Notes: generated by a model from the sequence alone, not told the origin. 20,000 nt of DNA from Reclinomonas americana ATCC 50394 (GCA_048213135.1 PS015201.1:90619-110618); one strand, 5' to 3'; positions 1 to 19,273 are shown, numbered from the stretch's first letter. Numbers and translations: made by a program.

Positions 1-258
1 ATGGGAATGGTGCTGGTGCAGCTCGTCACTGGCAAACCGGTGGCCACGGTGGGCGAGTGGTCCGAGGAGTGGCACGAGTCGCCAGAGTCGCTGCGCGTGA
101 TGGAGCTGGTGGATGTCGGGGAGGGCGTGGAGTGGACGCCGCGCGTTGCGGAGCCGATGTTTGCGCTCGGCATGCGGTGCATGAGTTTGCAGGCGAATCG
201 ACCGACGGCGCAGGAGGTGCTCGAGGTGATGCGCGGTGTGCGGGAGGTGTGTGGGTAG
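1..258 (+). CDS. 3' terminal exon (partial) of an IRAK/Pelle-like protein kinase; paralog of the gene at 871-4861
   Basis: MGMVLVQLVTGKPVATVGEWSEEWHESPESLRVMELVD...WTPRVAEPMFALGMRCMSLQANRPTAQEVLEVMR aligns almost residue-for-residue with 4589-4861 (MGVVLAQLVTAKPAKTVSEWSAELDDSPASLRVMRLVD...WTPRVAEPMFELGMRCMSMRHDRPTAQEVVDGMR). This is kinase subdomains IX-XI. The gene starts upstream of the window. Confidence 0.88.
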   Translation: MGMVLVQLVTGKPVATVGEWSEEWHESPESLRVMELVDVGEGVEWTPRVAEPMFALGMRCMSLQANRPTAQEVLEVMRGVREVCG

Positions 259-870: not shown

Positions 871-3800
871 ATGAGCTCGAGGTCTGTCTTTTCCCCGTTG
901 TCAGAATACCTTCATCTCTTTCTCCCTCATCCCTTCCCCTTCATCCCTCATCCCTTCCCCCATCCCCCTCATCCCTCATCCCGCCCTTCCCCCTCACTCC
1001 TCCCTTTCCCTCTTCAGAAAAAAAGCATACGAACTCGCCGCCGCCGGCAACCTCAAATCCCTCCGCAAGCTCGTCGCCCGCAAAGGCGCCCACACCCTCC
1101 TCCAACGCGACGAAATGAGCAGCGGTGGCGGCTCGGCCTTTGACTGGGCCGCCCAGCACGGCCACCTCCCCGTACTCGAGTACCTCTGGGAGGAGAGCGG
1201 CGTCGGCCCGCAACTCGCCCGCCTCGTCAACGACTCGGGATGGACGCCATTGATGGAGGCCGCCTATTATGACCACCTGCCAGTGGTCGATTGGCTGCTG
1301 GCCGATGCGCGACGGTGTCCGCTGGAAATGGTGCTGGCCGTGACCAATGAGCGCTCGTTTGATCCGCAATCGACGGCGTTGCATGTGGCCGCTGTGAAGG
1401 GACATGAGGCGGTGGTGCAGTTGCTGGCCACGAGATTCCCCGAGTTGATGTCGATGGTGGATGCCAAGGGGAAGACGGCGGCGCAGAGGGCACGTACGAA
1501 TGATAGGGTGCAGGTGGCCGAGTTGCTGGAGCGGCTGGCTCAGTCGCCACCGCCACGTGAGCAGGAAGGTGAAGGTGCGGTGTTGTTGTCTGATGCTGTT
1601 CTTGTTTTCCGCTGCTCACTTTTTTCCCTTGTCGTTGCAGGGGTGACACGGCAGGTGAGAGTCCTTCTCCTCCTTGCTCTTCACCTTCGCAGACTCTCCT
1701 TCGTGTCTTGTTCTTTGCCTGCTCTTTTCGGATTTCTTCGTGTCTCTTATTCTTCTCCTCCTCTCTTCTTCTTCTCCTCCTCCCTCTCCTCCGCCTCCTC
1801 CTCCTTCTACAGCCGAGTCTCTTCTTCTTCTTCTCCCCCTTCTCCTTGTCCCGTAACAGCTGAGTCTCTCCGCTCTTCTTCTTCTCTCATTTCATTTTCT
1901 CCTCCTCTTCCTCCTTCTCCACTTCCTCCTTCTCCTTCTCCCCTTCTACAACTGAGTGTCTCTTCACTCCTCTTCGCGCAGAGACTCCATCCACTCCTCT
2001 TCTTCGATTCTTGTTCTTCTCCTGCTTTTCCTCATTTCTTCGTCTTTCTTCTTCTCTCCGTTCTATTTTCTCCTCCTCTTCATCCTTCTCTTGCTCCTTC
2101 CCCATTTCATTCTCCTCTCTGTCTTTCTTCGTCCTTCACCTCCTCATCGTTCCCCGTCTACAACTGAGTCTCTCTCCTCTCCTCTTCTTCATGTCATCCT
2201 CTTCTCCTGCTTTTTCTTCTTGTTGACTGCTCTGGTTTCTTGTACTTCTGGCTCTATTTCCACCTCGCTTTCTTCTACTTCTCCCGTTCGCTCTCGCCCT
2301 CTTCCCTCCATCTTCTTCTCCCTCTCCCTCCCCTCCCTCTCCTTCTCCTCCACCACTTCCTCCTTATCGTTCTTTTTTCTTCTCTCTCCTCATCCTCTTC
2401 CTCTTCTTCTTCTTCGTCTTCGTCCTCTTCTCTCTTCTCCTCTCTTCTCCTCTGTTCTCCTTTCTTCTCTCCATTTTCTTCCCCTTCTTCTTCTTTTCCA
2501 TCTTCTTCTTATCCCCCTTTCTTCCTTCTTTCTTATTCTCCCCTCCCCTTCTCCTCGTCCTCCCCCTCTTATTTCCCCTTGTTCTTCTTCTTCTTCTCTT
2601 CCTCCTTCTCCTCCTTCTCCTCCTTCTCCTCCTTCTCCTTCTCCTTCTCCTCCTCCTCCTCCTCCTCCTTCCCCCTCTCACTTCCCTTCGCAGCCCCCGC
2701 CTGACGACTCGCATCTCACACTCATCGCCGACCTCCAACGCGACCTGGCCGCCGCGCTGCAGGAGCGCGCCCAACAGCAGCTGGAGTGGGACCGACAGCG
2801 ACGAGAGCACGAGGACACCATGGCGCAGCTGCAACAGGCCATGGCCGACCTGCAGCACGGCAACGCGGCGGGGCAGCAGCAAGTCGCGCACCTGCAGCGT
2901 GCGCTGGCCTACGAGCAGCAGAAGAACGCCCAGTTGCAGCGCACCAACTCGGAGCTGCAGCAGGCGCACGCCGGCGAGCTGCAGAGGGATGCCCAGCTGC
3001 AGCTTGCGCAGCAGCAAGTCGCCCAACTGCAGCGAACCGTCGCCGAATGCCAGCAGCGAGCGGATCAGTGGCAGCGAGCCAGCGCGGAGAAGCAGGCTGA
3101 GCGGGATCGAATCGCCGCGCAGCTGACAGTGGCGTTGCACGACAAGGACGAGCTCACCACGCAGCTTCAGGAGAAGGAACATGTTGTCGCGCAGCTGCGA
3201 CTGGAACTCCTCCTCGCGCGAGGTCTGCTTCTGGCTGTTCTTTTTTTGCGCCGCCTTATTCTCAATTCGCTGCAGTTCACACGTCGGTGCAGCGTTTCGA
3301 GTGGGCGGAGATTGAGCAGGCCACCAACTCATTCGCGGATGACCTGAAGGTCGGTGAGGGCGGTCAAGGCGCCGTTTACATCTGCAATCTCCAGGAAGCC
3401 CATGTGGCCATCAAGGTGCTTGATCCCGAGGCCCCGTGGACGATGGAGTCGTTTGAGAGTGAGGTCTGCCTCGTCCTTTTCTGCTTCTATTTCTTTCTGC
3501 TCATCTGTCTGCAGGTTGCCACTCTCGGGCGCCTGCGCGACCGTCGCATTGTGCCTCTTGTCGGTTATTCGGTGGGCGACGACAGGGCGCGTTGTCTCGT
3601 TTACAAGGCCCTGCAGTGCGTTGTTCATTGATCTCTCTTTCTCCATCATTGCCTCACTTAAAAAGCACGCAGAGTTCCCAACCTGGAAGATCTGTTGCTG
3701 CTGCCGCGTGCCGGTCGTGTGCCACTCTCTGTCGTGCAGCGTGTGCAGATTGGTCTCGGACTGGCTGAGGCTGTGGCCTTTTTGCACAAGGTTCGCACCA

Positions 3801-4468
3801 CCATCTAGTCAGGGACCTTGCTCTCTCTCTCTCTCTCCCTCGATTGCCACAACTCTTTTCACTCTCTGTCATGTTTTTTATTCCCCACTCTTCGCTCATC
3901 CTGCTCCTTCTTGTGTCACCATCTTTACTTTCTACCGTTCTGTCATCATGCCTCATCACTGTTGCTCCCCTTGCCGCACACATCGTTCCTCTTCCATCTG
4001 TCCCTCTCTCGCCCCTGCTTTTCTCCATCTTTGCGTTCCGCCGTTGTGCCTCTGTCACTCTTGATCCCCTTCCGCACTCTTCGTTTTGTCATGCTCCTCC
4101 TGTTTTCCACTCTCGCTGCTTTCTGTCATTTTCTCTCAGTCGCTCTTCGTTCCCCCCTTCTCCTCCCGTTGTTCTCTCCGTGCCTTCAGTCTTCGTTTCA
4201 GCTTCCACCCTTCTGTTTTGCTTTTCTCCTCCCTTCGCTCACTCTCCTGCATTAGATGCTCACTTCCCTCATCTCTGTTCTCTCTTTCACGCGCTTTTCC
4301 GCAGAATGATGTGGTGCACCGCGACATCAAACCCGCCAACATCCTCCTCGACCACAAGCTCGAGCCTTGCCTCGGCGACTTTGGCATCGCGCGATCGATT
4401 GCAAGTGACAAGGTACGAACTCTTCTTCTCCTTCTCTTCTCTCCTCGTTCCTCGTCTCCCCTGTCTCA

Positions 4469-4500
<32 letters not shown>

Positions 4501-4861
4501 GTCAACGACCGCCGCCGGCACCATGGACTACATGGACCCACTGTCGCTCCGCATTCGTCGCCCGCTGCCGAAAAACGACGTGTACTGCATGGGCGTGGTG
4601 CTGGCGCAGCTGGTCACCGCCAAGCCGGCAAAGACGGTGAGCGAGTGGTCGGCGGAGTTGGACGACTCGCCAGCCTCGTTGCGCGTCATGCGGTTGGTGG
4701 ACGCTAGTGCGGAGTGGACACCGCGCGTCGCCGAGCCCATGTTCGAGCTCGGCATGCGGTGCATGAGTATGCGACACGATCGACCGACGGCGCAGGAGGT
4801 GGTCGACGGGATGCGTGCACTGCGCGAGGCGTGCGGGCGGTACACGTCGGTTGTTGCATGA
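871..4861 (+). CDS. Ankyrin-repeat + coiled-coil + IRAK/Pelle/RLK-like kinase (multi-exon)
   Basis: Hand-built exons, all GT-AG and phase-consistent: 871-881, 1018-1574 (alternative donor after 1568), 1641-1654, 2694-3222, 3276-3463, 3515-3615, 3673-3790, 4305-4412, 4502-4861. Ankyrin motifs: SAFDWAAQHGHL, GWTPLMEAAYYDHL, STALHVAAVKGHEAVVQLL, DAKGKTA. A Q/L-rich heptad coiled coil follows. Kinase motifs: RFEWAEIEQATNSF...VGEGGQGAVY, VAIK, FESEV, IVPLVGYS...CLVY, LSVVQRVQIGLGLAEAVAFLH, HRDIKPANILL, GDFGIAR, GTMDYMDP, DVYCMGVVL, RPT. Confidence 0.9.
1655..2693 (+). repeat. ~1 kb intron of CT-rich low-complexity sequence
   Basis: GTGAGA donor at 1655 and TTCGCAG acceptor at 2693. The interior is almost all C/T (ctt, cct, ctcctt units). 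Confidence 0.85.
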
Positions 4862-5467
4862 CGACTGTGGCGCGTGAAGGAAGAGCAGAGGTGGCCATGA
4901 GACAGACCGTGTCCACGGTCCGGATCAACCAAGTGCATCCGTTCTCTCAGGAGCACAGAAGAGTGTGAGCTGCAATTGACAACAACGATTCATTTACCAC
5001 TGTCTTGATGACCAAGTTCAAGCACATGCAAAACATTAACACAAACACCAATCTTGAGGCAACAGCAGGTTTCATGTGTGTGTGTTCGCTCTCGGAGCTC
5101 CGAACAAGTCGAGAACTGCGATCTTCACCGCGTTAGCGTGGTTGACCAGTGGATTACGAACTTGAATTATGTCGTCACAGCACCAAGAGTGCTACAACGA
5201 TCTCGAGTTCAGCGTCTTCGAAGGTCACTGACGCCAAGTGCGCCACGAAGTCTTTTGAGCTCGATACGCGATTGCCTCCTGAAAGGGAAGTTGAAGACGA
5301 CTGTTGCAGTTCTGTCTCTCATCGATGAAGCTGCAGCTCTAAAGGTCAGAGAAAGAATCCGTGATCGAAGAACGTTAACGCAGCCTTCATATGCATATGC
5401 ATGGCTTCTTCTCGTTCTTTCCGTGATGTCTGAGTTTCTGGTGCTCACTCTGGTGATCATCACGCAG

Positions 5468-8124
5468 CTGTGTTGCTGTTTGGATTGGTAAAGTTGTTGT
5501 TGTTGTTGTTGTCGTTGTGCATCGCTCCTTCTGTTCTGCAACATCGCCAATGCATTTGTCGGGTTCGGAAACGGCTTCCTGTTGTCCGGCACACTCTCGT
5601 CCTCTCTCTTTCTCTCTCTTTCCTCAGCGCGCGCGGATGCGCGACTGCCTGTGTGCCCTCCACGATGCCTTTTGTTGCGTGACGCCCCCTGCACACACAC
5701 ACACACACACTCCACACTTATCTCACGCTCACGCTCACCACACAGGGCCATGTGTGTGCACAACAACATGGTGAGCAGATACTCCGACCTCTCACACACG
5801 CTCATTCACTTGCTCACAGCCGCACAGCTGCATTGCCCAGTACGCCATCAACTACATCAAACTCCGTTCGTCCCTCTCCGCCTGCTCTCCCTCACTCATC
5901 TTGCGATCTATTGACATGCCTCTCCATTCAGAGCGATACAAGGAGTACAGTCGATTATCCATGTTTCACAGCTTCGACAAGTGCTTCGACTGCGAAGAGT
6001 CCATCAGCTGCTGCATACAAACAGCTGCAGGTGGGTAGATATCGTGCTGCATGCACAGGTACTTCTGTGTTGTTGACTCACCTTCATTGCAGGTTCTCTT
6101 TGTTTCTGTGGTGTTGCGTTACTCTGTATCATTCCAGCTCCCATTGCATCTCATGCCTTGATCTCACTGCTGCTTTTTTTGAAGCTGCCCGGTGTCATGG
6201 CAGAATTGGATCCGGACTACGCGCAGCTGCAGGAGGATGTTGACAACACGGACTATCGTGAATGCTGTCGGTGTTTCTTGTCGTGCAACTTTTGGTGTCG
6301 TTGCGTGATCATCTCTGAGTCGTCTCACGTCTCACGTCTTGTCATTTCTTGTCCTCCTTCCCACTTTTCTCTGCTCTATGTGCCTCCTTCCCCCTTCCGG
6401 GATCCCCTCTCACTCCACGGACTTGCCATCTCACGCGATTGCATCACAGACTGTTGCCTCCCGTTCTGTACCGTGTGCTACACTGGGTACCGCCTCAACA
6501 GAATACAACGCGCCTACGGTGCCGGATTGCCTCCACGAACAAGCATTCGCCGCGAAGCAGTCTCCCCTGTATCCTCGCGACTAGCGGATCCGGCGGGCGA
6601 TGCCTGGCCAAACTCTATCAGCTCACCGCGAGTGGAGATGCGGCCAGCACCACCCCCTCCAGCAAGAGCACCTCCTCCACCACCACCACCACCACGAGCG
6701 GCTACTGCTCCGTATGTGCCCGTGACGGTGCGTCGAGTAACAGATGGCTCACTGCGTTGCGAGTCGTGCCTCGGCAGCGACTCCGGAACCGCTGTGTACT
6801 CCTTGCCATGTGTGCACGGCATCCACGCCGAGTGCTTGGTGGCTGCGCTGCGTGACGACTTGCAGGCCGGCAGGAAGGTCCGATGCAGTGCCACAGGCTG
6901 CAATCGAGGTTCGCGCACGAGTGAAGTGAGGGTGCGTCTTCTTGTACATTGCACTCACTGGGACGATCAGAGGTGCCACCGGAGATTGTGGGATCGGCAG
7001 TGGCCGACCAGCATGTCAAGCCACTGGGCGAGGAGTACAACGATTTCCTCAATCGCCAGTTTGTCGAGTCGGTGTTGCATGGCGTGTCGTGCCCGAATCC
7101 GCAGGTGAGGCGAAGAGAGGAAAGGAGAGGCAAAGGGAGTGGCAGAAGGGGAAGGGAGAGAGAGGGAGAGAGGGAGAGAGAGAGCGCGCGCGCGCGCAGA
7201 CTCAAGGAGGAAAGGAACAGGCAGCATGCAGCGTTGGTGTGGACTCGAATGGGAAGGGAATGGGAAAGACATGCATGCAAGAGAATTTGAGAACAGGAGT
7301 CCAGCGGATAGAGCCAGCAGACTGCAAAAAGATGAGAGGCGGAAGAGGAGAGCGGCATGAATGGAGTGCTCTTGATCATTGCAGTGTCGACGGATGGTGG
7401 AGGCCGCTGAGGTGGGGCAAGTGTGCATCAACTGTGCTCAGTGTGGAACAAGGTGAGTGGGGGTGAGAGAGAAAGCAAGAGAGCAATTCTCTTCGGGCAA
7501 AGCGCCTTCTTGTACCTCTCTTCACACCGCCTTGCTCTCTCCCTCCGCACCAATTCTCTCGTCAACACACAGCTTGCTACTATTCATTAATTCCACCTTT
7601 TGTGTCACCGCCACCAGGTTGTGCTCACGGTGCGGCTGTCGCCGTCCACCCACCGCCACCACCTGCGACGTGTGCGACGACGCCGAGCGCGCCCTCAACA
7701 CCGATCTGCAACGGTGTGGCACCAAGCAGATCAGTGGCCTTCCTGGTGCGGTGCCCGAAGTACGCGCCTGCCCGCGGTGTCGGAACTTGCTGTGTGAGTC
7801 TCCGGATCCCTGTCTGTTTTGCTGCTGCAGCTGCTCACGATGCATGTACAGCGCACATGGAGGCATGCAAGCACGTCAAGTGTTCGCAGGTGTGTCGTGG
7901 AGGGAGGGTGCACCTCTCTTGCCTCCGAAACTGACAGCTGTTACGTTTGTAGTGTCAGTCCGAGTTCTGTTTCCGCTGCCTGCAAATCCGGCCAGTGGGC
8001 GGCGTGTGGCCGTTGCGTGTGCGGCTGTTTCCCGTACGGGCTTCATGGTCCTCACTGCAACTGCACTTGCAGGTGTGGCTCGTTCAGCCACCCCTGCCCA
8101 ATCGCACCGCGACAGAGCTTCTGA
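5468..8124 (+). CDS. Cys-rich/hydrophobic (PLAC8-like) N-terminus + Pro-rich linker + RBR-type E3 ubiquitin ligase
   Basis: RBR exons are well supported: ..6908, 6971-7104, 7385-7452, 7618-7793, 7852-7889, 7953-8011, 8073-8124. RING1: CESC...CVHGIHAEC...CSATGC. IBR: CPNPQC...CAQCGTRLCSRC...C. RING2: CPRCRNLLSHMEACKHVKCSQCQSEFCFRC; the protein ends CPIAPRQSF*. Upstream exons 5932-6030 and 6093-~6257, then 6450 onward, give FDKCFDCEESISCC...LCFCGVALLCIIP...LISLLLFLKL...CCLPFCTVCY. The 5'-most microexons (5468-5487, 5746-5770, 5828-5839) and the start codon are uncertain. Confidence 0.8.
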
Positions 8125-10703
8125 GTGTGGCATCGCGTTTCAATTCGGCGGACTGTCAGACGAATATGCAAGCCAGCACGTGTACGTTGACTCCAACATG
8201 TACAGGCTCGACACTGGAGCGATCAATTCACCGACGTCGACGTCGGCGGCGTTCGACGCACTCACTAATATTGTGATGGAAAGTGGTGCAACACACAAGA
8301 AAGCAGGGAGCAGCGGGGTGAACGAGGGCGAAGGCGCATGAGGAATGAAACGTCGAGCGACCGAGATGTCGTCAGGACGAACAGACAACAAGTTGAGTGG
8401 AGAGTGGGTGTTCACTGCTGCAGTCTCCTTCAGCTCCGAATCAAGAAGATATGAGGTCTGTTTTTGTGCTCATTGTTCCGCACTCCATCTCGCTCACAAC
8501 CACACACACACAGCGGAACAATGGATCTGATGCAATTGGCATGGGATGGCGATGAGAAGGCACTGCGCGAGGTGGTGGCGCGTGAAGGAGCGCAGTATCT
8601 GATCAGCAGCGAGATGATTGCTCGACACGCAGGCTCTGTTTTCCATTTCGCTGTTGGCGGAGGCCATCTCTCTCTGCTGGAGTACTTGTGGGCGGAGACG
8701 GGCGTGGGACCACAGTTCGCACATATGATCAGCGGCGAGGGCTTCACACCGCTGATCATGGCTGCCTATCACGGGCATCTACATGTGGTTGAGTGGTTGC
8801 TGGCCGATGAGCGACGATGTCCACTGGAGACAGCGTTGCAGGTCGACTTGTACAAGCGCTCTGCGTTGCATTACGCTGCCCTGCATGGCCACGAAGCCAT
8901 GGTGGAGCTGCTTGGCACTCGTTTCCCCGAGCTCCTTCCGCTGACCGACATTTGGCGGAAAACAGCGGCTGAGAGCGTGTCACTGAGTCGACAACCATTC
9001 TTGGCGATTGCCGAGTTGCTGGACCGCCTTGCGGCGATGCCACGCCGCCAGAGACAGCCGCTATTTGGCCCACCAGAAGGTGTGGTGCAGATGTTGATGA
9101 GTGCTCCTCTTGCTTCCCACGCTGCCTCATTGTGCGAAATCATGTGCAGTGCCGGTAGTGCGGGTGAGACGAACGATGCTGCATTCTGTTAATGTTTTTG
9201 CACACATATTTTGTGCAGGCTCACAAGGTTGTGGACGAAGACCCGCTCAACGCACACCTCCAAGTGCATCGTATATTGGATGGCTCCCTTCGTTGCGAGA
9301 CGTGCCTCGGTAGCGACTCCGGCACCGCTGTGTACTCCTTGCCATGCGTGCACGGCATCCACGCCGAGTGCCTGGTCGCAGCGCTGCGTGACGATTTACA
9401 GGCCGGCAGGAAGGTCCGATGCAGTGCCTCCGGCTGCAATCGAGGTGCGCGCACGAGTGGGGTGAGAGTGCATCTTCTTGTACATTGCACTCACCAGGAC
9501 TATCAGAGGTGCCACCGGAGATTGTGGGCTCGGCTGCGGCCGACCAGCATGCAACCCCGCTGGGCGAGGAGTACAACGAATTTCTCAATCGCCAGTTTGT
9601 GGAGTCGGTGTTGCATGGCGTGTCGTGCCCGAATCCGCAGGTGAGGCGAAGAGAGGAAAGGGAGAGGCAGAAGGGGAAGGAAAGAGGAAAGAGAGAGAGG
9701 CAAAAGGGGAAGGGAGAGAGAGGGAGAGGGGCGAGAGAGAGCGAGCACAGAGTCAATGTAAGGGAACAGGCAGGTACGTTGGTGTGGACTCGAAAGGGAA
9801 GAGAATAGGAAGGGTACGAAACTTACGAGAGAAAGAGAGGGAGAGTGGACTTGGGGTGTGAATCGGACAGAGTGAGGGAAGCAGTAGACTGCAATAAAGA
9901 TGATAGGCAAAAGACGACAGCGGCATGAACGCCACTGTGACTGAGTGCTCTTGATCATCGCAGTGCCTACGGATGGTCGAGGCCGCTGGGGTGGGACAAG
10001 TGTGCATCACCTGTGCTCAATGTGGAACAAGGTGAGTGGGTGACAGAGAAAGCGAGAGAGCCATTCTCTTCGGGCAAAGCGCCTTCTTGTACCTCTCTTC
10101 ATACCACCTTGCTCTCTCCCTCCGCACCACTTCTCTGGTCAACACACAGCTTGCTGCTAGTCATTAATTCCACTTTTGTGTCACCGCCACAAGGTTGTGC
10201 TCACGGTGCGGCTGTCGCCGTCCACCCACCGCCACCACCTGCGACGTGTGCGACGACGCCGAGCGCGCCCTCAACACCGATCTGCAACGATGCGGCACCA
10301 AGCAGATCAGCGGCCTCCCTGGTGCGGTGCCCGAAGTACGCGCCTGTCCGCGGTGTCGGAACTTGCTGTGTGAGTCTCCCTGTCTGTTTTCCGCGATAGA
10401 GTACTTCTCACGACGCATGATCATGAACAGCGCACATGGAGGCATGCAAGCACATCAAGTGTTCGCAGGTGTGTCGTTGAGCCAGGGTGCACCTCTCTTG
10501 CCAGTGAGTCTCAAATCAGTTGCGTCTGCAGTGCCAGTCCGAGTTCTGTTTCCGATGCCTGCAAATCAGGCCAGCGGGCGGCGTGTGGCCGTTGCGTGCG
10601 CGGGCTGTTCCCAGTGGGTTTCTTGCAACTCGTCCTCACTGCGATTGCAGGTGTGGCTCGTTCAATCATCCCTGCCCGATCGCACCGCGACAGAGCTTCT
10701 GAG
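6740..10703 (+). repeat. Direct segmental duplication of the RBR cassette: ~6740-8125 vs ~9277-10703
   Basis: Exons are nearly identical and most introns align by eye, e.g. ttctcttcgggcaaagcgccttcttgtacctctcttca in both copies. Similarity stops right after the shared stop codon (cagagcttctgag). Confidence 0.93.
8451..10702 (+). CDS. Ankyrin-repeat + RBR-type E3 ubiquitin ligase (multi-exon)
   Basis: Exons 8451-8455, 8514-9079, 9150-9163, 9219-9444, 9507-9640, 9964-10031, 10194-10369, 10431-10468, 10532-10590, 10651-10702; all GT-AG and phase-consistent. Ankyrin motifs: SVFHFAVGGGHL, GFTPLIMAAYHGHL, RSALHYAALHGHEAMVELL. The RBR part is nearly identical to that in 6740-8124, with ACKHIKC in RING2. 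Confidence 0.87.
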
Positions 10704-10825: not shown

Positions 10826-13800
10826 ATGAGCACACCTCGTTGCCTCCCCGTGCTGCGCGCTCTTCTCTTCACACTCGCACTTTCACTGGTGCTGCTGATG
10901 GCAACGGCCAGCACCCACGCTCGTGCTCGTGGTGAGCGGACGATCGAGGAGGATCTCCCACTTTGTACTCAGTTTCTCTCGCTCGTTCTCTCTTGTCTCT
11001 TGTCTTGCCTTCTTTTCTCTTTCTCCTCTCATCTCTCTTTGTCTTCACGTCTCTTCTGTTCACTCCTCTCTCATCTCATTTCATCACTTCTATTCTCTCT
11101 CCTCTCCTCTCCTGTCTTCTTCTCATCTCTCCTCTCCTCTCCTCTCCTCTTGCCTCTCCCCTCCTCTCCTCTTGCCTCTCCCCTCCTCTCCTCTTCCTCT
11201 TCCTCTTCCTCTTCCCCTTCTCTTTCTCTTTCTCCTCTCCTCAGCTCTTCTCTCTCTCTCCTCTACTCTCTTCTCCTCTCCCTCACTTAAGCTCTCCTCG
11301 CCTCGCCTCGCCTTTCCTCTCCTGTCCTCCACTTTCCTCCCTCCTTCTCCGCCTATTCTCCTTCTCCTCTCCTCTCCTCTGTTTGCCCTCTACTCTCCTC
11401 TCTTCTCCTCTCCCTCTCGTCCTTCGTCTTGTCTCCTCTCCTCTTCTCTCCTCTCTTCTCCTATCCTCTCTTCTCCTCTCCTCTCCTCTCTTTCTCTTTC
11501 CCTTCTCCTCCCCATCTCCTTCTCTTCTCCTCTCCTTCTCCTCCTATCCTCCTTCTCCTCTCTTTCTCTTCCCCTTCTCCTTCCCTTCTCCTCTCCTCTC
11601 TTCCGCCTTCCCATCCCTCCTCTCTCTCCTCTCCCTCTCTCTTTGCCCTCACCTTCCCCCTTTTCCCCACAGACTCCTCCGACATCCTCACCGCCCTCGA
11701 CGAATACCTCGCCGACAGCAACANNNNNNNNNNNNNNNNNNNNNNNNNNNNNNNNNNNNNNNNNNNNNNNNNNNNNNNNNNNNNNNNNNNNNNNNNNNNN
11801 NNNNNNNNNNNNNNNNNNNNNNNNNNNNNNNNNNNNNNNNNNNNNNNNNNNNNNNNNNNNNNNNNNNNNNNNNNNNNNNNNNNNNNNNNNNNNNNNNNNN
11901 NNNNNNNNNNNNNNNNNNNNNNNNNNNNNNNNNNNNNNNNNNNNNNNNNNNNNNNNNNNNNNNNNNNNNNNNNNNNNNNNNNNNNNNNNNNNNNNNNNNN
12001 NNNNNNNNNNNNNNNNNNNNNNNNNNNNNNNNNNNCCAGCCAACACCTCGCCTTCGCCTCGGCGGAGAAGTCCGGCAGTGTCATTGCGCAAGAAACCGCC
12101 GTGACCATTGTCGAAACGATTCCGCTCTTCAACGAGTGGATGACGGCGAATGGAGTGGCGGCGGTGGAGACCGGTCGGTACTTGCGAACGTCGGTGTCGC
12201 TGGGTGATTTGGTGTTCCAGGCGGGCACGGCGGCGTGCCTGTTGCAGTGTCGGTCGACGAGTGTGAATGATTTGGATGCGTGGTGAGTGGAAGGGGGATG
12301 GGAGGGGGAAGGGGACGGAGGGGAGAAGGGGAGAGATACACGAGCAGGTAGAAAGGAAAACAGAAGAGTGGAAGGAGAAAGCGCGACAAGCAGCAGAGAA
12401 AGAAATGAAGCTGACAGGTAGGAGAACAGTGTATGCGAGGCGAAGGGGAAGAAGGAGAAGAAGAGAGAGATATGACCAGAGAGAGAGGCAGTGACACGAT
12501 AGCGCAGTCCGTTTACGAAAAACGAAGAAGGAATAGCTTTGAGCCACATAAAGAAACAAGAAGAAGCACCCACAGTCAAGAAGTGAAGATGCAGCGAAAG
12601 AACCTGAGCAAAGTCATGTGAGAGAATGCACTCTGTGCAGACAACAACGAGACTCGGGCATGAAGAAAAGAGATCTCCGTACTCCGTCAGAGTGTCTGTG
12701 ATGCAGAGAGAAGCACGAGGAAGAGCACCACAGCCAACCACGACGACGAAACAGAGAAATAGGAGAAGAAGCATCTGCAAAAACCGAGACTCAGCGAGAT
12801 ATGAAGGAGATCTCCATTCTCCGTCAGAGTGTCTGTTATGCAGAGAGAAGCACGAGGAAAGGCACCACAGCCAACCACGACGACGAAACAGAGAAACAAG
12901 AGAAGAAGCACTCACTCAGCGATAAATGAAGGATACCTACATTCTCTGTCAGAGTTTTTGCATCCCGTGTCACACAAAGAGAAACATAAGATGCGAAGAG
13001 ATTAGGAGCACGAGAAGAAGCACTCTTTTCAGGCATCGAGACCCAGTCATGAACACGAGAGACCTGCAGACTCTCAAGGAGACACAGACAGTCACTGACT
13101 GCAAGGACTGGCAAGAGACAGAAAACATCTCACCTCTACTTCCCCTTTATCCCCCCTTCCCCTTTATCCCCCCTTCCCCTTTATCCCCCTCCCACAGGGT
13201 CATCCCCGGCCNNNNNNNNNNNNNNNNNNNNNNNNNNNNNNNNNNNNNNNNNNNNNNNNNNNNNNNNNNNNNNNNNNNNNNNNNNNNNNNNNNNNNNNNN
13301 NNNNNNNNNNNNNNNNNNNNNNNNNNNNNNNNNNNNNNNNNNNNNNNNNNNNNNNNNNNNNNNNNNNNNNNNNNNNNNNNNNNNNNNNNNNNNNNNNNNN
13401 NNNNNNNNNNNNNNNNNNNNNNNNNNNNNNNNNNNNNNNNNNNNNNNNNNNNNNNNNNNNNNNNNNNNNNNNNNNNNNNNNNNNNNNNNNNNNNNNNNNN
13501 NNNNNNNNNNNNNNNNNNNNNNNNNNNNNNNNNNNNNNNNNNNNNNNNNNNNNNNNNNNNNNNNNNNNNNNNNNNNNNNNNNNNNNNNNNNNNNNNNNNN
13601 NNNNNNNNNNNNNNNNNNNNNNNNNNNNNNNNNNNNNNNNNNNNNNNNNNNNNNNNNNNNNNNNNNNNNNNNNNNNNNNNNNNNNNNNNNNNNNNNNNNN
13701 NNNNNNNNNNNNNNNNNNNNNNNNNCGCCCTCGACTCTCGCTGTCTCTATATTCGTCCCTCGTCGCCACTTCTTCTGTCCTTCCTTCTCTCTCCTCCTCT

Positions 13801-14760
13801 CTCTCTCTCTCTCTCGTTTTTTTTCTGCACGCAGGCTGCCCTTTTGCTATTTCCCTTCTCATTCCCACTTTCCGCACTTCATATCAAATCCCCCTACCCC
13901 TTGCCCTTCCTTCTTTCTCTCCCTCTCTCTCCCGTCTGTAGCTTGTCTTCGCCATCTCCTTGTTTCTCTTTCCTATCCCACGCCACCACTCCTCGTCACC
14001 TCCTTTTTCCCTTCCTCTCTCTCTCTCTCGCTCTTGTATGCCTCTCAATCCAATCTATTTTCTTCTCTTGCCCCACTCCCAGTCTTTTTCCCTTACTGTG
14101 TCCGTTTCTTTCGCCAATCCCACACTTTCTTTTCTCGCCCCGCCAAGTCACCGCTATTTCTCTCGCTCTCTCCTCGCGTGTCCTCATTTCTTTTCTCTTG
14201 CCCGGCTCCCAGTGCAGTCCCTGTCGCCAACAAAGCTCCTCACTTGCCTTTGTTCATTCAGTTCTCTTTACTTTTCTCCTTCTTTGTCGCTCGCTTTTTT
14301 CCCACCCCTCTTCACCCTTTTCCCGTTTCCCTTCGACCATCGCCTTCCCTTCTCCTCACTCCCTCCCTTTCCCTCTATTGCCCCATTTCCCTCACCCCCT
14401 TTTCCCATTCTCCCTTTGCCTTTCCAGAGCACCAAAACGCCCAACTCGGAGAAAATCTGCACGGGCAACTGGGCGGAGATCGCCGAGTTTGTGCGCACCA
14501 ACGAGGCCATCGTCATCGCCGCCGTCAAGAGCACCCACAAGCCCGCACAAGAAATCGACTTTGGCTCTGGCGAGCTGAAGCTGGCCGTCGGCGACAACGC
14601 CGAGAAGCAAGCCATTCGGCTCACCGACAATGCCGGTGCGCCGTGGACGTGGGCGAAGCGGTGGCCGGAGACCGCGGTCATCAGTGGCAGCAGCGGCAGT
14701 GACGGCACCACCATGCAGCTGCTGTCGTTTGCCATGCTGGAGTTCGAGGAGGAGGAGTAA
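10826..14760 (+). CDS. Uncharacterised signal-peptide-bearing (probably secreted/luminal) protein, interrupted by two assembly gaps
   Basis: Exon 10826-10931 (MSTPRCLPVLRALLFTLALSLVLLMATASTHARAR, signal-peptide-like; phase-1 donor GTGAGC) joins 11673 (DSSDILTALDEYLADSN, then gap). After the gap, 12036-12282 is coding-like with a phase-2 GTGAGT donor that joins the acceptor at 13198 (W-VIPG, then gap). The last exon 14428-14760 (STKTPNSEKICTGNWAEIAEFV...LEFEEEE*) has GC3-rich codon usage. Linkage across the gaps is inferred. Confidence 0.65.
10932..11672 (+). repeat. CT-rich low-complexity intron
   Basis: GTGAGC...CCACAG boundaries with (ctcct)n-type units inside. Confidence 0.8.
11724..12035. 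other. Assembly gap
   Basis: Run of N. Confidence 0.99.
12650..12955. repeat. Intronic tandem repeat, ~137 nt period, two copies plus a partial third
   Basis: agatctcc...ctccgtcagagtgtctgt.atgcagagagaagcacgagga...caccacagccaaccacgacgacgaaacagagaaa occurs at ~12671 and ~12808, with a degenerate partial copy at ~12926. Confidence 0.85.
13212..13725. other. Assembly gap
   Basis: Run of N. Confidence 0.99.
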
Positions 14761-14824: not shown

Positions 14825-15158
14825 TGGTGTCGTCGGAGACAGTTCATTCTTCGCAAGAGCGAGTCCGGTGTTGCAAACAGATCTGCAACAACAACAACAA
14901 CGACGACGACGACGACTTCATTAATCTCAACAGCAACACCTGTATCTCCATGGTCGTCGAGGACAGTTCATTCTTCGCAAGAGCGAGTCCGGTGTCGCAA
15001 ACAGATATGCGACAACAACAACGACGACGACGACGACGACTTCATTACTCCCAGCTGCAACCTGGATCACCATGGTGTCGTCGGAGACAGTTCATTCTCC
15101 GCAACAGATGCGCGCCGAGTCTTGCCCTTTCACACACAGATCAGCAGCAACAGCAACT

Positions 15159-15206
<48 letters not shown>

Positions 15207-15212
15207 GCAACA

Positions 15213-15267
<55 letters not shown>

Positions 15268-15295
15268 TAGCAACAGCAACAGCAACAGCAACACA
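14825..15295. repeat. ~125 nt tandem repeat (two copies plus a partial) followed by a (CAA)n/(CAG)n microsatellite
   Basis: tggtgtcgtcggagacagttcattct-type unit starts at ~14825, ~14951 and ~15073. The first two contain (caa)n(cga)n. A CAA/CAG run spans ~15143-15295. Confidence 0.88.
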
Positions 15296-15732: not shown

Positions 15733-15794
15733 ATGTTCCTCGTTGAACGCTCTGCACACCTCCTTCGCCCTCTGAGCCGTGGTACGCGAACTCA

Positions 15795-15832
<38 letters not shown>

Positions 15833-17732
15833 TCCAAACTCTAATCTGACAACACAAACAGCGCTCGGCGTGCGACCTATCATGCACATGACACGCGCAC
15901 TCTTCTCCAGTGACGCCACGTCATCGGAGAAGCCCTCCACTCCGACCACACCGAGTACAGCCGCGGAAAAGGTCATCTTGCAAGCTGTCCGCGACTCAGT
16001 GGCCGCCGGACAGAGCCCGTGGAAATGGTGAGCAACGAAAGCAGCGGCCGCTCACCACAGTGGACGATGACTGCTCACAACGACGCACAGGAAGAGCTTC
16101 CTTCCCGAGCACACGTATCCTGCACTGGAGCACGCAAAGACTGTGGATCTGTCGCTGCATCACCCGACGCGGACGTTTGGCGATCGTGTGGCGTACTGGG
16201 TGGTCAAGGCGATGCGCGTGCCCACGGATATGTTCTTTAAGCGCCGATATGGTCACCGGTGAGTATCGCCACTGGCCACAGGAATTAATAGGGACTACTA
16301 CAGCTATATACTGACGACTCCAATTGCCAGTGCATGCATGCTGGAGACGGTGGCGGCTGTGCCGGGTATGGTGGGCGGTATGCTTCTGCACTTCCGCTCG
16401 CTGCGTCGCTTTGAGGAGTCTCGCGGGTGGATTCGAGCGCTGCTTGATGAGGCGGAGAAGTTGCGACTTGTGCCGGCAGCTGTAGTGGTTGTGGTTTGTT
16501 TGCTCATCGTTGATGCAGTGAGCGGATGCATCTGGAGGTGTTTATGGCGTACTCGAAGCCGGGTCTCTTTGAGCGCTTCTTGGTTATGGCCACTCAGGTT
16601 CGCTTGTGCTGTATGCCACCCTCAACTCGGGCGTGGATCCCATATCCGCTCTTCTCTTTCGTCGTCCTCCGTTGCGCGTTTCTCTCTCTTGCTCTCTCTC
16701 TTTCTGTCTCTTTTTCTCGCTCTCTTTCTTTCTGTCTCCGCCTCTCTCCCTCTTTCTGTCTCTTTCCATCTCTCTCCTTCTCTGTCTCTTGTTCTCTCTT
16801 ATCTGTCTCTCTCAGAGTCTGTCACTCTCTCTCTCTCTTTCTCGCCCTCTTGCTGTCTCGCTCTCTCTTTGTCACTCTCTCCTCTCCCTGTCTCGCGCTC
16901 TCTCTTTGTCTGTCTCTTTCTCTCTCACTTTCTGTCTCTGTCTCTCCTCTCCTGTCTCGCGCTCCCTCTTTGTTGGTCTCTCTTTGATTCTATCACTCTC
17001 TCGTTGTCTGTCTGTCTCTCTTTGTTTCTGTCTCCCTTTCTCTCTTTCTCACTTGTCTCTCGCTCTCTCTTTGTCTGTCTCACTTTGTTTCTGTCTGTCA
17101 GTTTCTTTCCCTCTCCCTCTTCCCTCTTCCCTCTCCTCCTCCTCCCTCCTCCCTCCCTCCTCCCTCCCTCCCTCCCTCCCTCCCTCCCTCCCTCCCTCCC
17201 TCCCTCCCTCCCTCCCTCCCTCCCTCCCTCTCATATCTACCTCTCTTCCCCTCCACGCAGGTTGTATTCTCCACGGCATACACTGCGATTTTCATCATAT
17301 CACCAAAGGTGAGGTCTTCAGTTGCCTGTCGACTGCTTGTCATCGTTGAACTCATCACGCGCTATCTCATCAGACGGCCCATCGAGTTGTCGGCTACCTG
17401 GAGGAGGAAGCCATTCACAGCTACACCGAGTTTCTGAAGGACATTGAGGAGGGCATCATTGAGAATGTTCCGGCGCCCGAGATTGCCATTGTTGCGTCGC
17501 GTCGCGTCGTGCAGTTGGCCCCCCTCCCCTACTCACGTGTTTTTTGATGCAGGCCTACTGGCGCTTGCCAGCGAATGCCACGCTGAAGGACGTGGTGATT
17601 GCCGTGCGCAGCGACGAGGCCGGTCACCGCGACGTGAATCACTTGCGGGCCAATTATCTAGAGGCCGGCAAGGTCGACGAGGCTGCGCCGCTCGGCCCGC
17701 ACCCGCAGGTGCCGCCGGAGAAGATTTTGTAG
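15733..17732 (+). CDS. AOX: Mitochondrial alternative oxidase (ubiquinol oxidase, di-iron carboxylate)
   Basis: Exons 15733-15781, 15862-16027, 16091-16258, 16331-16459, 16519-16597, 17261-17308, 17374-17490, 17553-17732. Signature motifs [34 protein letters not shown] and [12 protein letters not shown] are all present. The N-terminus [33 protein letters not shown] resembles a mitochondrial presequence. Confidence 0.96.
16598..17260 (+). repeat. AOX intron with CT-rich filler and a (CCCT)n tetranucleotide tract at ~17150-17230
   Basis: Directly visible; GTTCGC donor and ACGCAG acceptor. Confidence 0.85.
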
Positions 17733-18241
17733 GCCATTGCAGCAACTGATGGTCATGCTCTCTCGTTTGCCCTCCTAATTCACTGTCGTTGCAAAAGTGG
17801 AGAGTGAATCCTCAATAGACTATTAATTTAAGGTGACGAAAGTCTCTCATTTTTGAGAAGGGCCCCTCTGTTCCCCTACCCCTTCCCCTTCCGCCTTCCC
17901 CCTTCCCCCTTCCCCCTTCCCCCTTCCCCCTTCCCCTTTCTTCCCCCTTCCCTTCCCCCTTCTCCCCTTCCGCCTTCTCCTTCTACCCCTTCCCCCTTCC
18001 CCCTTCTCCGCCTTCCCCTTCCCCCACTTGTCCCATGTCCGTGTTCAGAAATTCTTTTCGAACGCGCAGCGAAAAAATGCCACTCCTCCTCCCCCTTCGC
18101 CATCGTCGCCGCCGTTGCCTCGCTGGTGGCGGCTGCTGCTCCTCCCACTCCTCACCACCCACACTCTCACGACCCCCTCGAGCTCCTCCATCGTCTTCGC
18201 CACCACCCTCGAACACAGGAGAAGCATACGAGTGGCACGCC

Positions 18242-19273
18242 ATGAACGCCTCCTCCGACCCACGCTCTCCCTTTCGCACCAGCTTCACCTCGGTGGCCGT
18301 CACACGCGACGCGCAGTACATTATCTGCGGCAGCGTGGACGGCTCTGTGCATGTGAGGTCAACATCAAGTGGCCAACTGGTGCGACGCTGTGTGGGCCAC
18401 ACGGGCGACGTCAACGCAGTGGCCGTAGTGCGTGGCGAGGAGAGCGAGGAGGGCGCCAGCGCAGGCGAGCAGCGATTCGTCAGCGCCTCCAGCGACAAGA
18501 CGTTGCGCGTGTGGTCGCTCGCCACCGGACAAACAGTGCGCACACTCGCCGGCCACGACGGCGCCGTGACGTGCCTGGCCGCCTCACGCGATGGGCGACT
18601 CGTGGCCAGTGGGTGCAGTCGGCCAGAATTCGGAGTGCGCTTGTGGGGCGCCACGGGAGGTGCGCCACGACCGCCGGCGCTCTACCTGCTCACGGCGCAC
18701 ACCAACACCGTGACCGCTGTTGACATTTCGCGCGACAGTCGCCTGGTCGTGAGCGGTGGCGCCGACTGCATCGTCAATCTGTGGTCCGTGGCCACGGGCG
18801 ATATCGTGTGCTCGATTGGTGACATGGATCGAGCGTGCGCCGTGCGCGCAGTGGCGTTTTCGGGCAGCGGACATTTCGCGTTTGTCGGCACCACTGCTCC
18901 CGCGGTGGAGGTGTGCTCGGTGCCAGGTGAGCAGGAGGAGCAGCAGCAAAAGGACGCACCCGACGGGGACGACGATGAGCTGGCCGCCGTGCACCAGCTG
19001 CCGGGCCATAGCCATGGAGGAACGCTGTGCACGTGCATGGCGGTGCGGGAGGACGGCCGCATGCTGGCCACAGGTGGCGCCGACGGTCGCTGCGCGGTGG
19101 TGTCGCTCGCCACGGGCGAGGTGGTGAGCAGCGTGGACCACAACGAGTGGGTGATGGGTGTGGCGTTCACGCCAGAAGGCCGTCACGTGGTCACCTGCAG
19201 TCGCGACTGCACGATCAGAGTGGCGCGAGTGGACAGTGGGCTGGTGGAGCGGGTATTAGAGTCGGCGGGGTAG
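18242..19273 (+). CDS. WD40-repeat beta-propeller protein
   Basis: About 6-7 WD repeats: GHTGDVNAVAV...SASSDKTLRVWS; GHDGAVTCLAASRDGRLVASG; AHTNTVTAVDISRDSRLVVSGGADCIVNLWS; DHNEWVMGVAFTPEGRHVVTCSRDCTIRV. The start is uncertain: in-frame ATGs at 18035, 18077 and 18242, and a possible acceptor at 18218. Confidence 0.88.
   Translation: MNASSDPRSPFRTSFTSVAVTRDAQYIICGSVDGSVHVRSTSSGQLVRRCVGHTGDVNAVAVVRGEESEEGASAGEQRFVSASSDKTLRVWSLATGQTVRTLAGHDGAVTCLAASRDGRLVASGCSRPEFGVRLWGATGGAPRPPALYLLTAHTNTVTAVDISRDSRLVVSGGADCIVNLWSVATGDIVCSIGDMDRACAVRAVAFSGSGHFAFVGTTAPAVEVCSVPGEQEEQQQKDAPDGDDDELAAVHQLPGHSHGGTLCTCMAVREDGRMLATGGADGRCAVVSLATGEVVSSVDHNEWVMGVAFTPEGRHVVTCSRDCTIRVARVDSGLVERVLESAG

Follow-up and report, generated by a model that had tools for sequence, protein, structure and literature searches.

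Two ankyrin-headed genes of Reclinomonas americana with predicted 14-nt microexons, one of them probably joined to a ligase-like tail inside an exon

A window of 20,000 nucleotides (nt) from Reclinomonas americana ATCC 50394 (GCA_048213135.1 PS015201.1:90619-110618) contains two genes, here called A and B, that both begin with an ankyrin-repeat domain and end differently: gene A in a coiled-coil-like region and a protein kinase, gene B in a Cys/His-rich module resembling the RBR (RING1, BRcat/IBR, Rcat) ubiquitin ligases, which is also found in a neighbouring gene, C. In the reading that we prefer, and regard as fairly probable, the head of A and B is a common inheritance and B is a chimera, in which the ligase module that C also has took the place, inside exon 4, of the tail typical of the family. 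A and B would be old paralogues of a family of ankyrin-headed signalling genes that kept the same 5′ gene plan by inheritance, namely: a start exon only a few bases long, a single exon for the whole ankyrin domain, an exon of 14 nt, and the first 15 codons of exon 4. The 14-nt exon would encode part of an unconserved linker and is most likely constitutive, with short introns around it (66 and 70 nt upstream, and 55 nt downstream in B) and unusually strong 3′ splice sites. From codon 16 of exon 4, the coiled coil and kinase tail expected from A would have been replaced in frame in B by the RBR-like module, which C also has, introns included.

The ankyrin exons of A and B agree at 87 of 180 positions (48%, E 3e-55) and are thus homologous. 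Against the Pfam ankyrin profiles (Ank_2 PF12796 and Ank PF00023), the exon of A scores 68 bits and that of B 78 bits, with a cut-off of 27.3. A preliminary description of the window, made from the sequence alone, had held that the two genes share an ankyrin front end with one and the same exon-intron plan, and this stands: besides the homology of the exons, a script confirmed the coordinates, the splice motifs, the phases 2/1/0 and, in both genes, a 14-nt segment followed by GTGAGA. The difference between the tails was also rightly seen, A having a coiled-coil-like part and a kinase (Pfam Pkinase on single exons) and B an RBR-like zinc-finger module. Both full models are stop-free: that of gene A has 661 amino acids (aa), with ankyrin repeats, a Q/L-rich coiled-coil-like exon and a protein kinase, and that of gene B has 445 aa, with ankyrin repeats and then the Cys/His-rich module.

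Two close relatives of the ankyrin exons were found among the candidates in the best 150 matches of an exhaustive search. P0141, a fragment derived from an expressed sequence tag with the source name Reclinomonas americana, is 64% identical, and its tail departs from the family alignment after ATRF; P0174, an open reading frame (ORF) of 400 aa, is 47% identical. Aligned with the exons of A and B, they make up a specific subfamily in which 36 columns are invariant. A search limited to near relatives returned P0141 only, and in a wider homologue search generic multi-repeat ankyrins dominated, the 120 proteins listed reaching 39% identity at most.

One of these relatives supports the very short first exon of gene A, since 6 of the first 8 residues of the spliced A protein agree with residues 50-57 of P0174. 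In the model translations, gene B with its putative exon 1 has the same number of residues as gene A between the start Met and a conserved LR pair, which is not decisive; gene B could also start from an in-frame ATG at 8521. In intron 1 and the 5′ flank, similarity between A and B is confined to 10-12 nt around the donor.

To score the splice sites, donor and acceptor matrices were built from 27 other introns of the window, with the sites under test left out. These introns belong to the oxidase and signal-peptide genes (Table 1), to the kinase part of gene A and to the ligase parts of genes B and C. All 19 unique ordinary donors have G at +5, and a second class of donors, of which 3 are unique, begins with GTTGCG. 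Introns of this second class lie at 8012, 10591, 16460 and 17491, after exons that end in C, C, A and T, respectively; the first of them, 8012-8072 in gene C, must be removed to keep the frame. Of the 27 training introns, 20 have a branch-like motif, CT[CGA]A[CT], no more than 45 nt from the 3′ splice site and in most cases at a distance of 11-22 nt; the motif also lies 22 nt (A) and 20 nt (B) upstream of the microexon acceptors. Occurrences near intron 3′ ends include 1612-1620, 3655-3660, 9488-9494 and 16072-16078.

On this scale, the acceptors of the two microexons (12.8 bits in A, 10.5 bits in B) exceed all 27 training acceptors scored by leave-one-out; of the 1082 other AGs, just 2 attain 10.5 bits. 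The donors of the ankyrin exons score 10.0 bits (A) and 9.6 bits (B), each above 18 of the 22 leave-one-out donors, and 9.6 bits is reached by only 6 of 1081 other GTs. The donors of the microexons themselves score 10.1 bits in A and 6.0 bits in B (at 9164). When all frame-preserving paths with no or one internal exon were enumerated, the path through the microexon came first in both genes, at 40.7 bits in A and 33.0 bits in B. A scan of both strands for acceptor-donor pairs 3-30 nt apart returned only the two microexons (2 on the plus strand, 0 on the minus strand); its thresholds, at least 10.5 bits for the acceptor and at least 6.0 bits for the donor, were set from the weaker values observed, so that the informative number is the zero of other pairs.

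Each microexon thus has the properties of a coding microexon (an internal exon of up to 30 nt with canonical sites that keeps the frame), all four flanking sites per gene lying within or above the training range. Strong flanking signals are a feature of constitutive microexons, which annotation often misses, as described for plants (PMC8831610), and the signals seen here agree with those of the published constitutive cases. As judged from these sequence signals, both ankyrin heads very probably include the 14-base exon; the splice signals are strong, and it is from them that we infer the splicing itself. The two microexons had been called conserved, which applies to their length and position and not to their sequence, the two 14-mers sharing 6 of 14 bases.

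We consider it rather unlikely that one or both of the microexons are unused. Gene A would then have a long exon, 1018-1654, and gene B either a weak direct donor (9085 or 9082, joined to 9218) or no link at all between its halves, i.e. it would be two genes, one ankyrin-only and ending with the TAA at 9190-9192, the other a ligase gene starting from the ATG at 9192. The reading frame gives this some room. According to the preliminary description, the microexon is needed to restore the frame in both genes; this holds for B, in which retention of intron 2 leads to a stop and both splices are needed, and fails for A, in which the 66-nt intron 2 is stop-free and in frame, so that its retention keeps the frame, the long exon works, and the frame gives no independent support for the microexon. 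Furthermore, both direct paths in B are open, as is the ORF from ATG 9192. The direct donors, however, lack the G at +5 that all ordinary donors have, and they score at the bottom: 1.5 bits for 1580 in A, and -0.8 and 4.0 bits for 9082 and 9085 in B, each above only 1 to 3 of the 22 training donors. The direct phase-0 paths without a microexon were thus rejected on their low rank in the path enumeration and their donor scores.

The intron-2 region of A has a codon-usage log ratio of -12.5 bits, a value as low as which occurs in only 11 of 1387 coding windows and which is reached or exceeded in 905 of 3243 intron windows; by codon usage, this sequence looks intronic, which speaks against the long exon. 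For the intron-2 region of B, the result is ambiguous and would allow a coding role, at +3.8 bits (a value not exceeded in 78 of 1387 coding windows and at least equalled in 72 of 3243 intron windows). Unused microexons would also mean that a strong acceptor, a branch-like motif and a donor lie idle twice, at the same place in two paralogues. As for two genes in B, the only feature that favours them is the overlap by one base between the ankyrin-frame stop TAA and the ATG (9192-9194) that opens the ligase frame. Against them are the other gene spacings in the window, which are 124-890 nt and not zero, and the likely homology of the head of exon 4 of B to an internal exon of A (see below).

Neither microexon is a multiple of three in length, and its skipping would, as the preliminary description had it, shift the frame and truncate the protein: translation would stop after 3 further codons in gene A and 30 in gene B. 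One could speculate that the microexon is a regulated switch, which would be compatible with the chimeric origin of B, skipping leading to an ankyrin-only protein or to nonsense-mediated decay and so turning the effector off. We regard this as highly unlikely, given the very strong acceptors, which the plant study (PMC8831610) ties to constitutive and not to alternative microexons, and given the position of the microexon, as read from the models, in a linker in which A and B do not align. Slimmer still is the chance of a wider version, in which the microexon would act as a regulated gate throughout a large family of signalling genes with ankyrin heads and possibly of immune type, turning a full sensor-effector into an ankyrin-only decoy or a degraded transcript, and would stay with the head whatever the tail.

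The two genes were previously said to diverge completely after the phase-0 intron that follows the microexon. This is not what we find. The first 45 nt of exon 4 are still in the same register in A and B, with 15 of 18 bases identical between 2721-2738 and 9246-9263, i.e. at +27 to +45 from the acceptor. Compared at offset zero with other coding segments, a match of this kind was seen in 0 of 1393 cases for the B segment and in 1 of 1393 for the A segment, and in 3 of 20000 codon shuffles. We consider the homology of the exon-4 heads likely to be real. If so, the shared head includes the phase-0 intron and a further 15 codons.

The similarity of gene B to gene C takes over at this point. Positions 9279-10703 of B match 6743-8125 of C with 84.0% identity over 1455 columns (blastn), introns included; the identity is 93.9% in the exons and 88.3% in the introns, with 108 gap columns in the introns. 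The seven exon pieces are all of equal length and all splice sites are kept. Only one splice site is weaker in B than in C: the B intron 10032-10193 ends in AAG, the paralogous C intron (7617) in CAG. Among the 230 codons compared, 29 differences are synonymous and 12 are non-synonymous, so that the ligase half of B is under purifying selection and is translated in the modelled frame. The tract starts within exon 4 of B, at 9264-9279, and ends at the stop codon. In the interval 9264-9278, 9 of 15 bases match C (counted by eye on the alignment), with a nearly unbroken match from 9279 on, while the 45 nt of exon 4 ahead of 9264 do not align with C. With the shared head reaching to 9263 and the similarity to C starting from 9264, the A-like and C-like parts would meet at 9263/9264, between two codons of one exon.

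The location of this junction bears on how the two parts were joined. In classical intron-mediated exon shuffling, a three-exon ankyrin cassette would move by recombination in the phase-0 intron after the microexon, and the boundary of homology would lie at that intron. Such a model would account for the same three-exon plan ahead of two unrelated tails and for a cassette that ends in phase 0, and the mapped junction is at most 60 nt from the intron. The boundary is nevertheless found 46-60 nt inside exon 4, and not in or just after the intron where the preliminary description had placed the breakpoint: A and B stay in register for 45 nt beyond the intron, and the similarity of B to C begins only at 9264-9279, after 45 nt that do not align with C. 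The two phase-0 introns, aligned over their 3′ parts, show no evident similarity either. Of the "portable cassette", only two instances are seen here. As the junction maps to the inside of an exon, the joining would not be intron-mediated exon shuffling of this kind, and we hold that model to be unlikely overall; with the join inside the exon, the phase-0 intron would simply have come with the inherited head, the exchange having taken place elsewhere.

We thus return to a chimeric gene B with an inherited head. Both ends of the B-C tract are sharp, one at the start of the first zinc finger and the other at the stop codon. These ends would fit a recent copy as well as gene conversion between older paralogues, and in either case either gene could be the donor; direction and mechanism are here what we infer, as is any function of the products.

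The nature of the shared module was judged from Cys/His spacing patterns that we take to represent RING1, BRcat/IBR and Rcat. The BRcat and Rcat patterns have one match each, in the right order, in spliced B and in spliced C. A looser RING1 pattern has two matches in each, the second of which is the Rcat stretch. No match to the Rcat pattern was found in 270 unrelated proteins. At the C-x-H position expected from this pattern, a Cys is present both in B (within residues 389-418) and in C. The tail of gene B is accordingly called RBR-like as a reasoned label, and not as a demonstrated membership. The part of gene C ahead of the module (about 5750-6740) is Cys-rich and then a proline-rich linker, and its exon structure is ambiguous, a GTTGCG near 6300 or a GTGTTT at 6271 being the candidate donor. 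A PLAC8-like label for the Cys-rich N-terminus of C was dropped, there being no Pfam match.

A number of points weigh against the account given here. The splice matrices were trained on 27 introns of a single window, and six of these are paralogous pairs. As said, gene A keeps its downstream frame with intron 2 retained and does not need the microexon. Neither P0141 nor P0174 covers the microexon junction. In gene B, a second donor at 9158 (GTGCGG, 5.8 bits) gives an 8-nt exon, 9150-9157, in the same frame, with a path score of 32.8 bits; the donors 9158 and 9164 are 6 nt apart, and the choice between an 8-nt and a 14-nt exon is one of two codons. Intron 2 of A and that of B are weakly similar, with a score of 21 that 7 of 149 control pairs and 13 of 1000 shuffles also attain, and this was not used as evidence. 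For the head of exon 4, the match was noticed first and tested afterwards, and unrestricted tests are weak: the DNA score is reached in 20 of 2000 shuffles and in 71 of 1000 comparisons with the whole exon, and the protein score in 338 of 2000. Finally, the RBR label depends on Cys/His patterns; in Pfam searches with single exons, RING scores 20.2 bits, below the cut-off of 27.3, with no match to IBR, and in PDB and Atlas searches with single exons, only weak RING matches and no IBR or Rcat were obtained.

Table 1. Positions of the genes and of the modelled parts of genes A, B and C in the window
Feature	Position	Strand	Remarks
Kinase gene, tail	1-258	+	Gene cut by the window edge
Gene A	871-4861	+	
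Gene A, exon 1	871-881	+	11 coding nt from the start codon; donor GAG/GTCTGT; phase 2
Gene A, ankyrin exon	1018-1574	+	557 nt; ends GAAG/GTGCGG, phase 1; Pfam Ank_2 E 1.1e-18
Gene A, intron 2	1575-1640	+	66 nt; stop-free and in frame; CTCAC branch-like motif 22 nt from its end
Gene A, predicted microexon	1641-1654	+	14 nt; donor CAG/GTGAGA; ends in phase 0
Gene A, intron 3	1655-2693	+	1039 nt; CT-rich, microsatellite-like; ends in phase 0; tandem repeats 2306-2689
Gene A, exon 4 head	2694-2738	+	First 45 nt, common to gene B
Gene A, remainder	2739-4861	+	Q/L-rich coiled-coil-like exon, then five kinase exons
Gene A, kinase exons	3276-3463, 3515-3615, 3673-3790, 4305-4412, 4502-4861	+	
Gene C	about 5750-8124	+	
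Gene C, RBR-like module	6743-8125	+	Exons and introns; similar to gene B 9279-10703
Gene B	8451-10702	+	
Gene B, putative exon 1	8451-8455	+	5 coding nt; donor GAG/GTCTGT; phase 2
Gene B, ankyrin exon	8514-9079	+	566 nt; ends GAAG/GTGTGG, phase 1; Pfam Ank_2 E 8.1e-22
Gene B, intron 2	9080-9149	+	70 nt; CTCAT branch-like motif 20 nt from its end
Gene B, predicted microexon	9150-9163	+	14 nt; donor CGG/GTGAGA; phase 0
Gene B, intron 3	9164-9218	+	55 nt; ends in phase 0; next exon from 9219
Gene B, exon 4 head	9219-9263	+	15 codons; matches the exon 4 head of gene A
Junction interval	9264-9278	+	Similarity to A ends, similarity to C begins; exonic, on a codon boundary
Gene B, RBR-like module	9279-10703	+	Rest of exon 4 and six exons; stop codon 10700-10702
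Signal-peptide gene	10826-14760	+	Interrupted by two N runs
Alternative oxidase gene	15733-17732	+	Pfam AOX on single exons, E 3.4e-12 and 2.3e-10
WD40 gene	18077-19272	+	Apparently intronless

The window as a whole is eukaryotic and dense in introns, and all its recognisable genes are on the plus strand (Table 1). In the kinase part of gene A, the 36-aa exon 4305-4412 matches the Pfam protein kinase profile (PF00069) at profile positions 118-151 with 38 bits, above the cut-off of 31.7, and the last kinase exon (4502-4858) scores 27.1 bits, below it. Its motifs, read by eye, suggest a kinase of the IRAK/RLK-Pelle type; a database homologue search with its last exon gave no match. The last exon of the upstream kinase gene and that of gene A (4589-4837) are 78% identical in DNA, which makes the kinases tandem paralogues too.

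Long introns of the window are of two kinds. Those at 1655-2693, 3791-4304, 10932-11672 and 16598-17260 are nearly pure CT-rich, microsatellite-like sequence on the coding strand, and three others (7105-7384, 9641-9963 and 12283-13197) are AG-rich; the short introns (51-89 nt) are of ordinary composition. In intron 3 of gene A, the motif CTGAGTCTCT is not enriched, with 8 matches to 3.85 expected, and 8 is reached in 6 of 200 shuffles. The N runs in the signal-peptide gene, at 11724-12035 and 13212-13725, leave its model incomplete. Downstream of this gene lie a 124-nt unit repeated 2.3 times and then a long CAG/CAA repeat (14825-15104 and 15145-15293).

The closest parallel for the microexons comes from plants, in which coding microexons of 1-15 nt have been described (Yu et al. 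2022, PMC8831610). As that account presents them, these too are internal coding exons of at most 15 nt, with a length that is not a multiple of three and with strong flanking signals; their size and phase are kept between homologous genes, and they are easily overlooked in annotation. Unlike them, the present cases are predicted from sequence in a protist, share 6 of 14 bases with each other and encode linker residues rather than a conserved motif. Among the papers listed for jakobid nuclear introns, we found nothing on nuclear microexons, and we make no claim that the arrangement is absent from the literature.

For the protein of gene B, the animal ligase ANKIB1, an ankyrin-repeat RBR protein of the Ariadne group, offers a likeness of architecture: as outlined in PMC3940038, it has N-terminal ankyrin repeats followed by RING1, BRcat and Rcat-like elements in this order, and it has an Ariadne domain after the RBR, whereas gene B ends 27 residues after its Rcat-like motif (389-418 of 445). 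With so few residues left, the 445-aa model of gene B does not fit the Ariadne subfamily or ANKIB1. Its combination of ankyrin repeats and ligase module would rather be the product of a local fusion.

In general, chimeric genes arise by tandem duplication, fusion or gene conversion. Gene B resembles them in that a 5′ part is joined in frame to the copied 3′ part of a neighbour and both copies are then under purifying selection. Nothing about B is unusual in this respect: the junction falls between two codons of an exon, and the copied tract runs as far as the stop codon.

Taken together, gene B would be an ordinary chimeric gene, a tidy case of gene remodelling that calls for no new mechanism. 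If RNA confirms the models, there would be a lesson for annotation, since gene finders that miss the 14-nt exon would split B or truncate both proteins. Gene B would also be a well-resolved example of the origin of a gene by domain swap, in which a ligase tail has taken the place of a kinase tail on an ankyrin head, with the junction located within a 15-nt exonic interval.

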